IMG/VR virus record: IMGVR_UViG_2698536435_000009
Source: a virus
Lineage: Duplodnaviria; Heunggongvirae; Uroviricota; Caudoviricetes
DNA: 7,446 bases
Reading direction: 5' to 3' (one strand)
In this document: positions 2,374-7,446 of the stretch, one piece after another
Layout of the letters: each line of letters starts with the position of its first letter
Position numbering within the stretch: position 1 is the stretch's first letter
The notes under the pieces: model-generated
Seen by the model: only the letters and a program-made list of their open reading frames with translations
Databases searched by the model: none
What the model was told of the DNA's origin: nothing
Program-made: the position numbers and the translations under genes

Positions 2374-3653
2374 ATCAGGGAACTGGTTATTCTCATTTTT
2401 TATTTGTGACATTGTGGTTGTTGTGCGACAGACATTGCTATTCGGCCCATATCCCAGATAAAACCCGCCAGCTCACGTGCAACAGCAACAATTGTAATAT
2501 TGACATTCTTTCCTTTGGCCTGAAGTTTTCGATACCTCTTACAAAGCCTGAGTTGAGCATCCCATGCTCTGTCAATGACGGGGCGGGGTAAATTTTCCTG
2601 CCTTTTTTGTATTGCCGGACTGATGCGTGCCGGATGACGGTAACTCCACGCTGCCTCGACCAATAGCTTTCTGGCATAGCTGTTTCCGGCTTTGGTAATG
2701 CTGCCCTGATGTCTGCTTCCACCCGATGAATATTCTGATGGCGTGATACCAAACCATGACATCAGTTGTCGTGGATGTTCAAAACGGGTCAGATCACCCA
2801 GTTCAGAAATTAATCCAACCGCAGTAATAAACTGAATCCCTCGCATGGCTTGCAGCGCCTCTACTACCGGATACAGCCTCCATTCGGTAACGGCCTCCTT
2901 CAGGGCGGATTCCAGCCGTTCACATTGTGCCTGCCGATCTTCTATTGTACGACGGTGTTCGTCAAAAGCTAATTGTCGCCAGGGACTTTCGAATGAGTAT
3001 TTGCTGAGCCAGCGTCGGTGTGCAGGGCCCCAATCTGCTCGCCCGACATAATGGACCCCATGAACCAGAAGAAACGATTTCAGACGTTGCCTTGCATGCC
3101 GTAAATCATCGCGGGCAGATGCCCATGCCCGGGCCAAATCCCGGAATGCCTCATCTTCAATGCCGGGTACGTAGACAGCAGAAAGATCTCCTGCACGCAG
3201 TGAACGCACAAGTCTGATGGCATCACGGCGATCGGTTTTAACCCGCTCCCCCGGTTTTTTCGGGATAAGTGAGGGGGCGCAGACCATGCAGTCAAAACCG
3301 GATTTCACCAGCCGACGATAAAGTCCATAACCACAGGGCCCCGCTTCATAAACGATACTGACCTGCGATGACTTTGACCTGAGACGTTTACAAAGATTCT
3401 GAATATCAGTAGGTGATGTGCCAATTTTACCCATCAGTTCAACAGGTTCTGAATTGATAGCATAAGCGACAGTAATCGATTCTTTGTGAACATCTAACCC
3501 GACGTACAATGTGTTATTGTTGTTCATGCTGGCCTCCGTGGTGGAAATACCGGGGTGTAGCAACAGCTCACCCATGCGGCTCTGACAACGATGTTAACCC
3601 GCGTTAAATATCCCACGTTGGCCAGCATCTGTCTCACGGAAAGTCATACTGCC
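2374..3653 (-). mobile_element. IS110-family insertion sequence (about 1.28 kb, boundaries approximate) with no obvious terminal inverted repeats
   Basis: Bounded on the left by the break in methyltransferase homology at 2373/2374 and on the right by the tfa-like copy B (stop at 3654, homology to copy A resuming at 3676). It contains a single DEDD-type transposase ORF. The right boundary is uncertain within 3528-3675. Confidence 0.65.
2400..3527 (-). CDS. IS110-family (DEDD) transposase, about 375 aa
   Basis: ORF track 2400..3575. The preferred start is ATG 3525-3527 (MNNNNTLYVGLDVHK) with GGAGG 7 nt upstream. It has the N-terminal YVGLDVHK motif typical of IS110-family transposases and the C-terminal ITAVGLISELGDLTRFEHPRQLMSWFGITPSEYSSGGSRHQGSITKAGNSYARKLL region. 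Confidence 0.85.
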   Translation of the reverse strand: MNNNNTLYVGLDVHKESITVAYAINSEPVELMGKIGTSPTDIQNLCKRLRSKSSQVSIVYEAGPCGYGLYRRLVKSGFDCMVCAPSLIPKKPGERVKTDRRDAIRLVRSLRAGDLSAVYVPGIEDEAFRDLARAWASARDDLRHARQRLKSFLLVHGVHYVGRADWGPAHRRWLSKYSFESPWRQLAFDEHRRTIEDRQAQCERLESALKEAVTEWRLYPVVEALQAMRGIQFITAVGLISELGDLTRFEHPRQLMSWFGITPSEYSSGGSRHQGSITKAGNSYARKLLVEAAWSYRHPARISPAIQKRQENLPRPVIDRAWDAQLRLCKRYRKLQAKGKNVNITIVAVARELAGFIWDMGRIAMSVAQQPQCHK

Positions 3654-3923
3654 TTACATTGTGTCTGGTTCTTCCGGCCACTCAATATCAGGTGCAGTTG
3701 ATGTATCAACACGGTTCAGCAACACCCGATACTTCTTCCAGGCTTCCAGCAACGAGTTTTCTTCCTCCGTTGCGATCTCCAGATCTACAGCATCCTGAAG
3801 TGGCGCAATATGCTCACTGAATTCCTGGATGTAGAACTGTGTGGTGACGGTCTTCCAGCCATTCGGCTCCTGCTGTATCGAAGCATACCAGGCTATTTCA
3901 ATATCGCTATGCTGCGGCAGCAT
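3654..3923 (-). CDS. Short tail fibre assembly (Tfa)-like protein, 89 aa, intact copy B
   Basis: ORF track 3654..3923. The C-terminal 50 aa ([50 protein letters not shown]) align with the C-terminus of the full-length Tfa at 6583..7110 ([45 protein letters not shown]). The N-terminal 40 aa are unrelated. Confidence 0.55.
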
Positions 3924-3950
3924 TTAACCCCTTGTAATTCATCGCCATAA

Positions 3951-3979
3951 TTGATTTAATTCACAAATAAAACTATAAC
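3951..3979 (+). promoter_or_regulatory. Possible promoter for the methyltransferase gene (TTGATT, 17-nt spacer, TATAAC)
   Basis: Hexamers at 3951-3956 and 3974-3979 in the 56-bp divergent intergenic region. The -10 element abuts ATG 3980, so the real start may be the second ATG at 3992 on a very short leader. Weak, pattern only. Confidence 0.2.
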
Positions 3980-4648
3980 ATGGTGAAATCAATGAAAACA
4001 AACACAGATGATGGGGCTAAAATTTACACACCACTTACCCTAAAGCTTTATGACTGGTGGGTTTTGGGAGTATCAAATCGGCTTGCATGGGGATGTCCTA
4101 CAAAGGAACACCTTCTTCCACACTTTCTGGAACATTTAGGTAACAACCATCTGGATATTGGTGTTGGAACTGGGTTTTACCTTACTCACGTACCTGAGAG
4201 TAGTCTGATATCTTTAATGGATTTGAACGAAGCTAGCCTGAACGCGGCATCTACAAGGGCTGGGGAATCAAAAATTAAACATAAAATTAGCCATGATGTT
4301 TTTGAACCTTATCCCGCGGCGTTACATGGTCAATTTGATTCCATTTCCATGTTTTACCTTCTTCACTGCCTGCCTGGAAATATATCTACAAAAAGCTGTG
4401 TAATACGCAATGCGGCGCAGGCCTTAACTGACGATGGAACTCTATACGGAGCCACAATTCTTGGCGATGGAGTTGTGCACAATAGCTTCGGTCAAAAACT
4501 GATGCGCATTTACAATCAGAAAGGCATCTTTTCAAACACAAAAGATTCCGAAGAAGGCTTAACACATATACTCTCAGAGCATTTCGAGAATGTTAAAACC
4601 AGGGTTCAAGGTACTGTAGTAATGTTTTCCGCTTCAGGGAAAAAATAG
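3980..4648 (+). CDS. Class I SAM-dependent methyltransferase (Rossmann fold), 222 aa, intact copy B
   Basis: ORF track 3980..4648. Motif I LDIGVGTGFYL (hh-D-h-G-x-G-x-G), with an acidic residue after beta-2 (LMDLNEA). No DNA-methyltransferase catalytic motifs (DPPY/NPPY or PC) were seen. An alternative start is ATG 3992. Stop is TAG. Confidence 0.8.
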   Translation: MVKSMKTNTDDGAKIYTPLTLKLYDWWVLGVSNRLAWGCPTKEHLLPHFLEHLGNNHLDIGVGTGFYLTHVPESSLISLMDLNEASLNAASTRAGESKIKHKISHDVFEPYPAALHGQFDSISMFYLLHCLPGNISTKSCVIRNAAQALTDDGTLYGATILGDGVVHNSFGQKLMRIYNQKGIFSNTKDSEEGLTHILSEHFENVKTRVQGTVVMFSASGKK

Positions 4649-4655
4649 CATCCAA

Positions 4656-4688
4656 CCGCAGCACGTTCTTGCTTAAGACGTGCTGCGG
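4656..4688. repeat. Perfect 11-bp inverted repeat (CCGCAGCACGT, 11-nt loop, ACGTGCTGCGG) between the convergent methyltransferase and tfa fragment C
   Basis: Read directly from the sequence. It is GC-rich but has no adjacent U-tract on either strand, so it is not a canonical intrinsic terminator. Confidence 0.5.
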
Positions 4689-4702
4689 CATAATCCCAAT
4701 GA

Positions 4703-4797
4703 TTACTCCCTGACAGGGTTCGTAGGCCACTCAATATCAGGTGCAGTTGATGTATCAACACGGTTCAGCAACACCCGATACTTTTTCTAGGCTTCCA
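4703..4797 (-). pseudogene. Tfa-like C-terminal fragment, copy C, with an amber codon at the conserved Trp position
   Basis: Homologous to 3654-3745 of copy B. It reads EA then TAG then [27 protein letters not shown]. The TAG is plus-strand CTAGG at 4787-4791 where copy B has CCAGG. Homology to tfa ends at 4797. Confidence 0.55.
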
Positions 4798-4798
4798 C

Positions 4799-5029
4799 CA
4801 CCAGCACGACAAGATGCCGCATACAGTGACCCAGTCAGTCCAGTTTTCAGACAACCAGTGCGTCACCTTTTTGAAGGCGCTTTAAAGCACGTTTTAATCC
4901 AGGTCGGCCTGTCCTTGTTCCGCTTAATTTATCTTCAAATATTTGTTCATATCCTGCACAAACAAGAGCGTTTCGTTGCAGGTCTGTATTCTGGTCATTT
5001 GTTGATACCCTTACATAGCCAATCAGCAC
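4799..5029 (-). pseudogene. pin: Pin/Gin/Cin-family serine DNA invertase, N-terminal remnant (about 77 codons) with in-frame stops, fused to tfa fragment C
   Basis: From GTG 5027-5029 (GGAG 8 nt upstream) it reads MLIGYVRVSTNDQNTDLQRNALVCAGYEQIFEDKLSGTRTGRPGLKRALKRLQKGDALVV, matching the Gin/Pin N-terminus including the catalytic Ser in VRVSTNDQ. It then reads TGA-KLD-TGA-LGHCMRHLVVLVVEA against Gin WKLDRLGRSMKHLISLVGEL (Gin sequence from memory). The resolvase C-terminus and the helix-turn-helix are absent. Confidence 0.8.
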
Positions 5030-5083
5030 GCTGAATCTCCCGTCCAAAAGCACAAATCATGCCATGCAGGCCAGAAACCGCCA

Positions 5084-5109
5084 TTATCTAAAACCTCGGT
5101 TTACGAGAA
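5084..5109. other. gix/pix-type 26-bp recombination crossover site for a Gin/Pin-family invertase
   Basis: TTATCTAAAACCTCGGTTTACGAGAA, with the imperfect dyad AAACC-TC-GGTTT, closely resembles the Mu gix and e14 pix sites as I remember them. It lies between the invertase start and the tail-fibre variable segment, and the tail-fibre reading frame opens inside it at 5092. Confidence 0.7.
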
Positions 5110-5868
5110 CTCGGCACAAGCGGGGAGAAAATACCGTTACTCAGTACAGCGAATACCTGGACTAATCGACAAACATTCAGCGGTGGCCTTTCTGGTGAAC
5201 TATCCGGCAATGCTTCTACAGCTGCAAAATTAAAAACTGCCAGGAAAATAAGCAATGTGGCTTTTGATGGTTCCTCCGATATCACATTAAAAGCAAGTCA
5301 TGTTGGTGCGTTTGCCTTAGGGAAAACAGGAAGCACCGTTGCGAATGATAAAGCAGTTGGATGGAACTGGAGTAGCGGAGCCTATAACGCAACTATTAGT
5401 GGTGCATCAACGTTAATTATTCATTTTTATATGGGAGAAGGAAGTTGTCCTGCAGCTCAGTTTCGGATTAATTATAAAAATGGCGGTATTTTTTATCGTT
5501 CAGCCCGTGATGGTTATGGTTTTGAAGCCGACTGGTCCGAATTTTACACCACCAGAAAACCTTCAGCAGGAGATGTTGGTGCACTGCCGTTATCTGGTGG
5601 TCAACTGAATGGTGCACTGGGTATCGGAACATCCAGTGCTCTTGGCGGTAATTCGATTGTATTGGGTGATAATGACACGGGCTTTAAACAAAAAGGCGAT
5701 GGTAATCTGGATGTTTATGCTAATAACGTCCATGTTATGCGCTTTGTCTCCGGAAGCATTCAAAGTAATAAAACCATAAATATTACGGGACGTGTTAATC
5801 CCTCGGATTACGGTAACTTTGATTCCCGCTATGTGAGAGATGTCAGACTTGGCACACGAGTTGTTTAG
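5092..5868 (+). CDS. Tail fibre protein variable C-terminal segment (Sv, silent orientation), with no own start, ending at an in-frame TAG; the frame continues 5872..6018
   Basis: The open frame begins within the crossover site (NLGLRELGTSGEKIPLLSTANTW...) and covers ORF track 5257..5868 (GTG-initiated). It is Gly/Ser-rich and fibre-like. After TAG 5866-5868 the same frame encodes 48 more aa ending [17 protein letters not shown], homologous to the C-terminus of the minus-strand copy ([17 protein letters not shown]). Confidence 0.6.
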   Translation, partial: NLGLRELGTSGEKIPLLSTANTWTNRQTFSGGLSGELSGNASTAAKLKTARKISNVAFDGSSDITLKASHVGAFALGKTGSTVANDKAVGWNWSSGAYNATISGASTLIIHFYMGEGSCPAAQFRINYKNGGIFYRSARDGYGFEADWSEFYTTRKPSAGDVGALPLSGGQLNGALGIGTSSALGGNSIVLGDNDTGFKQKGDGNLDVYANNVHVMRFVSGSIQSNKTINITGRVNPSDYGNFDSRYVRDVRLGTRVV

Positions 5869-6020
5869 ACCATGAAGAAAGGCGTGATGTATGAAAAATC
5901 AGGCCATGTAATCACGGGGCTTGGTATTATCGGTGAAGTCGATGGTGATGATCCGGCAGTATTCAGACCAATACAAAAGTTAATTAACGGAACATGGTAT
6001 AACGTATCGCAGGTATAATC

Positions 6021-6554
6021 ATGCAGCATTTAAAAAACATTGTCGCAGGTAATCCAAAAACCGTTGAACAATACCAGCTAACAAAGAATTTTGATGTTAT
6101 CTGGTTATGGTCCGAAGATGGAAAAAATTGGCATGAGGAATTAAAAAACTTTCAGGAGGATACAATAAAACTGGCTTACACAGTTGAGGGAATAATTATT
6201 GCTATAGACAAGGATGTATCAGCAATTAATCCAGAAGGTTTAAGTGTCGTTGAGTTGCCTGATATTACAGCAAATCGCCGGGCTGATATTTCGGGCAACT
6301 GGATGTTCAAAGATGGTGCGGTGATAAAGCGAACTTATACCGAGGAAGAGCAAAGGCAACAAGCGGAAAATGAAAAGCAGAGCCTGCTGCAGCTCGTCAG
6401 GGATAAAACCCAGCTGTGGGACTCTCAGCTACAGCTGGGCATCATTTCCGATGAGAATAAACAAAAATTAACCGAGTGGATGCTCTATGCGCAGAAGGTT
6501 GAATCCACAGACACCTCCAGCCTGCCAGTAACGTTTCCCGAACAACCAGAATGA
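6021..6554 (+). CDS. Tail fibre assembly protein (Tfa), 177 aa
   Basis: ORF track 6021..6554. ATG follows 2 nt after the TAA of the upstream tail-fibre frame. It is paralogous to the minus-strand Tfa ([22 protein letters not shown] versus [21 protein letters not shown]) and ends with the conserved PEQPE-type terminus. Confidence 0.85.
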
Positions 6555-6557
6555 GAG

Positions 6558-6587
6558 AAGGCCCGCTATCGGGCCTTAATTTTTATT
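6558..6587. terminator. Bidirectional intrinsic terminator between the convergent tfa genes
   Basis: Perfect 8-bp stem AAGGCCCG, CTAT loop, CGGGCCTT (6558-6577), followed by AATTTTTATT on the plus strand, with a T-rich stretch on the other side for the minus strand. Confidence 0.55.
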
Positions 6588-7110
6588 CAGGCTTTTGTGG
6601 CCATTCAGGATTTGCCGTATCCACACGGCTGACCAGAACACTGTAGCGTTCCCATGCTTCCAGTCGTGTGCGTTCCTCGTCTGTTGCCATATTCAGCCTG
6701 ACAGCTCGTTCCAGCGGCTGGATGACTGATTCAGCTTCGGAAAGCAATGCGGCCTTTTGTGATTCGGCCTGTTGTTGCAGTTCCTGTTCTGTATATTCCC
6801 TCTTTACTACTTTACCATCCAGAAACATCCATTTTCCGTTATTGTCTGCGTGACGATTTGCCGTAATATCAGGAACTTCAACTATGCTTAGCCCTTCAGG
6901 ATTAATAGTTGAAACGTCTTTACTGACAGCAACGATGATGTTGTTCTCATCGTAAGCAATTTTTATGGTGTCTGGCTGAAAATTCTTTTGTTCCTCATAC
7001 CAGTTTTTGCCATCTTCGCAAAAGAGCCATACCACGCCCGCTTTTTTAGTTAGCTGGTATTGTTCCGGTGTTTTCGGATTCCCGGCCTTAATATTTTTCA
7101 GGTGCATCAT
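6583..7110 (-). CDS. Tail fibre assembly protein (Tfa), inverted paralogue, about 175 aa
   Basis: ORF track 6583..7146. The preferred start is ATG 7108-7110 ([11 protein letters not shown]) with GGGGAG 8 nt upstream, sitting 1 nt after the TAA of the tail-fibre gene. The C-terminus is [13 protein letters not shown]. Confidence 0.85.
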
Positions 7111-7111
7111 C

Positions 7112-7446
7112 TTAAACACTCCCCACGTTGTACCATATTCCCCCAATCAATTTCTGAATTGGCCTTCTGGCAACAGTGTCGACAATATCATCCGCATTGC
7201 TGTTAATTGCGGCTGTTAAAACATAACCTGACGCATCGCCAAAGCCGTAGTCGCGCCATACGTTTTTATATTCAATGCTGCCAAGACGAATATCCCGAAC
7301 GACATGATTATGCAGCCATGTGCTTAACCAGTTGTTTTCCCACACTGAACCATAAATATCGCCACTAGACGCAACTTGCGCACCACTTCCCAGCGCAAAT
7401 TGAGGTAGCCTGAGTTTAACGGACACTCCTTCCTGAAATAGAATGG
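7112..7446 (-). CDS. Tail fibre protein variable C-terminal segment (expressed orientation), partial, continuing beyond the right edge of the window
   Basis: ORF track 7112..7426 is only GTG-delimited, and the frame stays open to position 7446. The C-terminus ...[63 protein letters not shown] is homologous to the plus-strand silent copy but is not interrupted. Confidence 0.75.

Follow-up and report, generated by a model that had tools for sequence, protein, structure and literature searches.

The G segment of Mu, served by gin, and the P segment of e14, served by pinE, share an architecture in which the constant 5' part of a tail-fiber gene stands before mirrored Sv/U and U'/Sv' cassettes, with inverted crossover sites of 26 bp and a serine invertase encoded alongside. 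A related system is Phi4 of E. coli ST131 strain EC958, for which Forde et al. (2014, PMC4134206) described a truncated invertase, EC958_1582, that has no C-terminal helix-turn-helix domain, and a 3106-bp invertible segment with the same 26-bp crossover site and flank as reported here. PacBio reads of one EC958 culture contained both orientations of this segment; trans action was concluded for Phi4, with the invertase of Phi1, whose own sites are nearly identical, as a candidate (PMC4134206). Trans inversion across prophages has been established by experiment: PinQ, encoded in Qin, acts on the P segment of e14 (Kirigo et al., 2025, PMC12529663); there the invertase of one cryptic prophage flips the tail-fiber segment of another, which is the mechanism that a Phi4-type locus requires. 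Whereas K-12 e14 retains its own pinE, the local enzyme is absent at a Phi4-type locus, and the switch therefore depends wholly on foreign enzymes.

The window, by which we mean the whole 7,446-nucleotide stretch of DNA analyzed here (IMG/VR record IMGVR_UViG_2698536435_000009), carries the same element as EC958 Phi4, with the same ompW/trpA site and the same methyltransferase cargo gene; in both EC958 and NCTC86 the element lies between trpA and a disrupted ompW. The invertase remnant and the tail-fiber assembly (tfa) fragment fused to it (together pin'-tfa) differ between EC958 Phi4 and the window at 3 of 384 bases, and the proximal crossover site with its flank, ccgccaTTATCTAAAACCTCGGTTTACGAGAA, is identical, the site itself being identical to 'Phi4_3prime' of Table 3 in PMC4134206. 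Whereas EC958 Phi4 keeps a full 2.9-kb tail-fiber gene and a second crossover site, and inverts, the window is without both. The window also departs from EC958 in that IS1 adjoins trpA, ISSso6 has inserted and is accompanied by a 756-bp duplication, the proximal fiber arm contains a nonsense codon, and the distal fiber allele is a different one, cut by IS600. Unlike in Mu and e14, the invertase is a dead stump, the window holds one crossover site, and the host prophage is lambdoid (J, Lom, stf-type fiber).

Relatives of S. sonnei type were found through a look-up of the 177-aa tfa protein encoded in the window. Because relatives match the window at 99.6-99.96%, one of them being Shigella sonnei ATCC 29930 (CP026802.1), and because the IS110-like element in the window is ISSso6, the window is a S. 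sonnei-type copy of the element. Complete E. coli genomes yielded no match to the whole window at a coverage of at least 80%, and no collection searched contained its configuration with ISSso6 in exactly this form; scans of genome contigs for the exact Sv-b/IS600 and pin'/tfa joints gave no match, nor did a look-up of the methyltransferase ORF truncated by ISSso6. The remnant itself is already known: it was described in EC958 Phi4 by Forde et al. (2014, PMC4134206), and the PGAP annotation of the EC958 equivalent enters two pseudogenes, a 'recombinase family protein; internal stop; missing C-terminus' and a tfa pseudogene.

We consider it highly probable that the locus is the decayed switch of a lambdoid prophage, whose invertase died early, which is inverted in trans where two sites survive, and which in the window was broken by IS600. 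In a S. sonnei-type chromosome, a lambdoid prophage, since decayed, would have inserted at ompW, beside trpA, and the window would hold its right-hand end. The ancestral locus would have been a host-range switch of the Mu G or e14 P type: a constant tail-fiber 5' part, a pair of inverted 26-bp sites, and two mirror-image cassettes, each of which joined a variable fiber C-terminus to an assembly gene of its own, with a gin/pin-type invertase alongside. The parts of it that can be recognized in the window are listed below.

4703-4797, minus strand: 3' fragment of a tail-fiber assembly gene (tfa), last 27 codons and stop, continuing the reading frame of the invertase remnant
4794-5029, minus strand: what is left of a serine DNA invertase gene of the Gin/Pin family, starting with GTG and covering the first 80 of about 190 codons
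4945-5008, minus strand: putative Fis-dependent recombinational enhancer (sis-like) in the 5' coding part of the remnant, proposed from homology and geometry
5084-5109, plus strand: 26-bp crossover site of the pix/gix type, TTATCTAAAACC-TC-GGTTTACGAGAA, on the invertase-proximal side
5110-6018, plus strand: silent alternative tail-fiber C-terminal arm (Sv-a'), promoterless and without an N-terminus of its own; gp37_C
6021-6554, plus strand: tail-fiber assembly gene paired with Sv-a, 177 aa, intact; Caudo_TAP, E = 4.8e-34
6583-7110, minus strand: tail-fiber assembly gene paired with the opposite arm, 175 aa, intact, convergent
7112-7400, minus strand: second tail-fiber arm (Sv-b), C-terminal 96 codons, 5' part cut away
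7401-7446, no strand assigned: end of IS600 (IS3 family) truncating Sv-b, the last 46 bases of the window

The invertase remnant and its joint with a tfa fragment

An earlier note on this DNA had read a Pin-like coding sequence of about 60 codons with an intact catalytic serine motif, and the translation of 4700-5053 (minus strand) is exactly as written there. From the GTG at 5029 (minus strand), upstream of which stands GGGAG, 60 clean codons follow (VLIGYVRVSTNDQNTDLQRNALVCAGYEQIFEDKLSGTRTGRPGLKRALKRLQKGDALVV), with the catalytic Ser9 motif YVRVST unbroken; the frame then continues as TGA, KLD, TGA, LGHCMRHLVVLVVEA, TAG, 27 tfa residues, and a stop. In this translation, the remnant accounts for the first 80 of the 193 residues of a Gin/Pin-type serine invertase. 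When the two TGA codons are read as W and R, the 80 remnant residues match PF00239 (Resolvase) with E = 9e-22, and residues 2-79 of Gin (PDB 4m6f, 193 residues) align with the remnant at E = 4.5e-41, YVRVST being conserved; by these scores, the similarity to Gin is far above chance. The first TGA (4847-4849) replaces W61 of Gin and the second (4835-4837) replaces R65. These are the Trp and Arg positions that the earlier note had proposed, in an alignment that proved right against the 4m6f sequence; when aligned with Gin and Pin, the invertase homology is found to reach past residue 60, as far as residue 80.

Mu-like gin genes match the remnant DNA over the first ~200 coding bases, down to 4839, at 92.5% for Mu and ~95% for the closest Mu relatives. 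Beyond ~4839 and up to the joint, the remnant DNA follows e14 pinE almost base for base, and not Mu gin, so that the remnant is a gin/pin mosaic. The pinE-like stretch beyond ~4839 had been missed by the earlier reader, as had the IS600 break at ~7400.

The same reader had found the C-terminal half of the invertase and its helix-turn-helix missing, and this holds. When full-length Gin and PinE were run by tblastn against all frames of the window and of the 14-20-kb loci of ten relatives, residues 100-193 had no match, and the C-terminal half is absent from the window and from within 10 kb in the relatives. The helix-turn-helix DNA-binding domain (PF02796) was likewise without a match, whichever frame of the window or of the 20-kb regions of relatives was searched. 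A full-length invertase concealed by a frameshift, or lying in another frame, is ruled out by the tblastn searches, which covered the window and the loci of ten relatives. What is lacking, moreover, includes an uninterrupted catalytic domain and the E-helix (residues ~60-135), given the TGA codons at W61 and R65 and the end of homology at residue 80. Without R65 and what follows it, the E-helix on which dimers and tetramers depend, and the DNA-binding helix-turn-helix domain, the stump cannot act as a catalyst. Since the local invertase is a non-functional remnant, inversion needs a trans-acting enzyme of the Gin/Pin family, as had been concluded before.

The joint between the invertase and tfa sequences had been placed at 4797/4799, which is right to within 2-3 bases; it falls within a 4-base microhomology, TGGA, at 4794-4797. 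The fused tfa fragment resembles the tfa 3' ends at 1546-1693 and 3676-3751, and a Trp codon in it has mutated to TAG at 4787-4789 (compare the intact copy at 3654-3923). Illegitimate deletion at the TGGA microhomology would have joined codon 80 to the tfa 3' end, with nonsense mutations at W61 and R65. The alignment with Gin/Pin is stretched by tblastn across the tfa fragment (4742-4790, minus strand) to residue 99; the tfa C-terminus looks like the invertase motif SIDTS(S/T)P, probably by coincidence. Three tfa 3'-end fragments, 89-96% alike, are found at 1546-1693, 3676-3751, and 4654-4800, and the class I SAM methyltransferase cargo gene (3980-4648) is bracketed by direct repeats of the tfa gene end. 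These repeats may be the way in which the cargo gene and the pin'-tfa joint were assembled.

Across the window, EC958, NCTC86, and eight S. sonnei-type genomes, the remnant differs at 0-3 of 384 bases, and the stops and the junction are identical. Because the stops and the joint are common to all these strains, the invertase died before the inversions reported below; its destruction would have preceded the acquisition or inheritance of the element by phylogroup B2 (ST131), NCTC86, and S. sonnei. Near-invariance across distant strains is also what might be expected if translation of the stump still yielded a product, either a peptide of 60 residues or one made by read-through of TGA, and this product had a function, for instance as a dominant-negative regulator of other invertases; the GTG start, the upstream GGGAG, and the 60 undisturbed codons that have been kept would fit such a role. 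However, recent common descent accounts for the near-invariance equally well, and the peptide would be without the dimerization helix needed to poison partner enzymes. A run of 21 codons contains three nonsense codons, and divergence sets in after the first of them (GHC vs. GRS), which argues that there is no selection on the protein. Read-through is further disfavored in that, to our knowledge, there is no efficient TGA recoding in E. coli and Shigella. We find a functional translated stump barely credible.

Crossover sites and inversion beside the same remnant

The site at 5084-5109 is the sole crossover site in the window and lies 54 bp upstream of the start codon of the remnant. A second, distal site, expected as TTATCGAATACCTCGGTTTACAGGAA, is absent from the window; a partner site exists in L001, L004, L009, and L010 (these numbers denote the loci of relatives), and relatives whose fibers are intact possess two sites. 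Mirror-image cassettes are present (5110-6554 on the plus strand and 6583-7400 on the minus strand), the proximal arm carrying a nonsense codon and the distal arm being truncated. This nonsense codon is an in-frame TAG at 5866-5868 of the Sv-a' arm, where NCTC86 has CAG. The constant 5' tail-fiber region is also absent from the window; it is present in L004, with a fiber of 918 aa, and in L010, with one of 875 aa, in which IEYLGLRE is read across the crossover site.

Where a switch has lost its own invertase, it is natural to regard it as locked, as the earlier note did with the word 'probably', and the reading in its general form is that the switch is frozen in one orientation wherever the remnant occurs. 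The remnant is certainly non-functional, and within the window nothing is able to invert, both of which speak for such a reading. It can be compared with the orientation of the segment in other genomes. To obtain the sequence expected of the inverted state, the two EC958 sites were exchanged in silico at their central TC, which gave a junction of 899 bp. The predicted junction is found in 143 complete E. coli genomes at a coverage of at least 80%, with 100% identity over the full length among the matches listed, and these genomes include the ST131 strains JJ1886, JJ1887, JJ2434, and MNCRE44. The native junction beside the stump is found in 239 complete E. coli genomes, and native and inverted junctions each reach up to 100% identity. 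Even similarly named isolates differ, 4/0 being inverted, and 4/1-1 and 4/4 native.

In E. coli SCAID WND1-2021 1/128 (NZ_CP082831.1, 5.45 Mb), native and inverted junction matches both occur, at ~2,246,845 and ~4,765,651. Either the locus is present twice in this genome, once in each orientation, or a contig of the alternative allele was integrated by the assembly, an artifact of which Forde et al. warned (PMC4134206).

The window, L004, L009, and L010 share the 384-bp remnant without a single difference, and yet the segment of L010 is inverted, with breakpoints at positions corresponding to 5080-5104 of the window. The crossover sites of these loci are as follows.

L004 and L009, site 1: TTATCTAAAACC-TC-GGTTTACGAGAA
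L004 and L009, site 2: TTATCGAATACC-TC-GGTTTACAGGAA
L010, site 1: TTATCGAATACC-TC-GGTTTACGAGAA
L010, site 2: TTATCTAAAACC-TC-GGTTTACAGGAA

The sites of L010 are reciprocal hybrids of those of L004 and L009, swapped at the central TC, and reciprocal hybrids are the product expected of a serine invertase that cuts at the central dinucleotide. In S. sonnei ATCC 29930, the stump is identical, the segment is inverted, and the crossover sites are hybrid; this inverted state is proof of a past trans event and not of a current one. The nonsense codon of the proximal arm also truncates the expressed fiber in ATCC 29930.

A switch frozen wherever the remnant occurs is contradicted on each of these counts: both orientations flank an identical remnant in ST131 (239 vs. 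143 genomes), both were present in one EC958 culture (PMC4134206), and both occur within S. sonnei, with reciprocally hybrid half-sites. For loci that keep two sites the frozen reading is refuted, and in its general form we hold it to be very improbable. The word 'locked' is thus wrong for the family of loci that retains two sites, in which the switch is, to judge from these junctions, driven in trans, because the local enzyme is dead and yet both orientations flank an identical stump.

The two orientations might also have arisen by homologous recombination, or by import of whole cassettes from other prophages, and not by site-specific inversion in trans. Tail-fiber regions are indeed mosaic, as is the remnant itself, with its gin and pin parts, and NCTC86 has Sv-a-like sequence on both arms and is no simple inversion of the window. 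However, the breakpoints fall exactly inside the 26-bp sites, the half-sites are reciprocally swapped at the central TC, and the predicted 899-bp junction is 100% identical among the matches listed, in a set of 143 genomes at a coverage of at least 80%. Both states also occur together in reads from a single culture (PMC4134206). On this evidence, recombination or import as the source of the two orientations has very little to recommend it. Under the preferred account, trans inversion, a locus that has kept two sites would be open to the invertase of another prophage, which would recognize the near-identical sites and exchange strands at the central TC.

NCTC86 had seemed inverted relative to the window and was considered as an example of inversion; BLAST shows that both of its arms are Sv-a-like (L002, 6001-6770 and 8223-8965, 94% and 98.5% identical to window 5110-5852), and it was dropped as a mosaic. 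The alternative fiber tips of NCTC86 would be nearly alike.

The IS600 break and neighboring decay

For the window, the conclusion of the earlier note that the switch is probably locked stands, though with a different cause, namely IS600 and not the loss of the enzyme; for the locus elsewhere it fails, since both orientations lie beside an identical remnant. Homology to the intact 918-aa tail fiber of L004, and to E. coli tail-fiber genes, ends at 7400. Five relatives (L003 and L005-L008) match the window through its last base, 7446, and in these the element continues as an IS of ~1.27 kb; the E. coli annotation of the equivalent element reads 'IS3-like element IS600 family'. Beyond IS600, the same five loci carry unrelated prophage lysis DNA, in an arrangement that is different again in L007, and no second crossover site is present within 9 kb in any of them. 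These data suggest that the switch in the window is immobile through a physical break at IS600 and not through a missing enzyme, because the cut at ~7400 detached the second crossover site and the constant tail-fiber region; we infer the DNA beyond 7446 from the closest relatives. The lost crossover site may survive elsewhere on the chromosome.

In the lineage of the window, IS600 would have inserted into the distal arm, or a rearrangement would have taken place at it, with loss of the second site and the constant region, and a CAG-to-TAG mutation would then have struck the proximal arm too. The locus would be reduced to an invertase that is dead, an enhancer and a single crossover site that are both orphaned, and two cassettes in decay, and would no longer be a switch.

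The neighboring prophage region of L007 (11445-20534) lies in reversed order and orientation relative to L003, L005, L006, and L008, and is bounded by another IS3-family copy, so that otherwise identical S. sonnei-type genomes differ past IS600. The arrangement in L007 is consistent with an IS600-mediated inversion.

Decay also extends to the other side of the remnant, where the methyltransferase cargo gene, tfa 3' fragments, the ISSso6 insertion, a Rha/Ash module, and an IS1 end are found. ISSso6 (IS110-like, 1302 bp, 2374-3675) interrupts one copy of the methyltransferase gene and is flanked by a direct duplication of 756 bp (1618-2373 and 3676-4431), far longer than any target duplication. 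The two 756-bp copies differ at 14 positions, all within 1656-1831, in the tfa 3' fragment, and this clustering suggests gene conversion from another tfa copy. Neither the insertion nor the duplication is present in any of the eight related S. sonnei-type loci or in EC958. Positions 1-51 of the window, which abut the prophage remnant, we take to be a terminal inverted repeat of IS1. A full IS1 stands next to trpA in L003 and L005-L008, in place of the ompW fragment of EC958.

A putative enhancer in the stump and what the locus means

Wild-type Hin is inactive in the absence of a 65-bp enhancer, whose two ends bear Fis sites and whose usual distance from one hix is ~100 bp (PMC3798978). The corresponding element of Mu, 'sis', lies 'within the invertase gene', in the words of the title of Kahmann et al. 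(1985), as cited in PMC3798978 (also PMC3820752). At 4945-5008, within the remnant, 63 of 64 bases match Mu gin, and two 15-bp G...C cores of Fis type, GTATCAACAAATGAC and GTGCAGGATATGAAC, stand 49 bp apart, the first ~96 bp from the crossover site, centre to centre. This geometry agrees with that of the 65-bp enhancer of the Hin system. The positions of the two cores are presumably homologous to those of the two Fis sites of the hin enhancer. The stump thus probably still bears a Fis-dependent enhancer in its retained first 85 bp, and this enhancer in the dead gene would probably help a foreign invertase to act. Forde et al. make no mention of an enhancer (PMC4134206); that the stump coincides with the presumptive enhancer is only a modestly new point.

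If the enhancer is real, a foreign invertase would owe its efficient action to a cis element within the stump, which would explain how switches without an enzyme remain efficient substrates. A more extended proposal is that the locus is a 'client' switch, which consists of crossover sites and a cis enhancer but no enzyme, and whose flipping is governed wholly by the invertases of co-resident prophages. On this view it is the enhancer that would have kept the first ~240 bp of the dead gene, in which it lies, nearly constant in E. coli B2, NCTC86, and S. sonnei, and the switch would be maintained by a host-beneficial role of the alternative fibers, as for PinQ and StfE2. We offer this last proposal tentatively, as possible but rather unlikely.

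In the window, the locus is prophage wreckage that is being dismantled by IS600, ISSso6, and IS1, as is typical of genome decay in S. sonnei. Elsewhere, a dead local recombinase does not imply a fixed switch, as the Gin/Pin-family enzymes of other prophages serve heterologous sites. Because these enzymes act across prophages, orientation calls and tail-fiber annotation can differ between the assemblies of near-identical ST131 or Shigella isolates.
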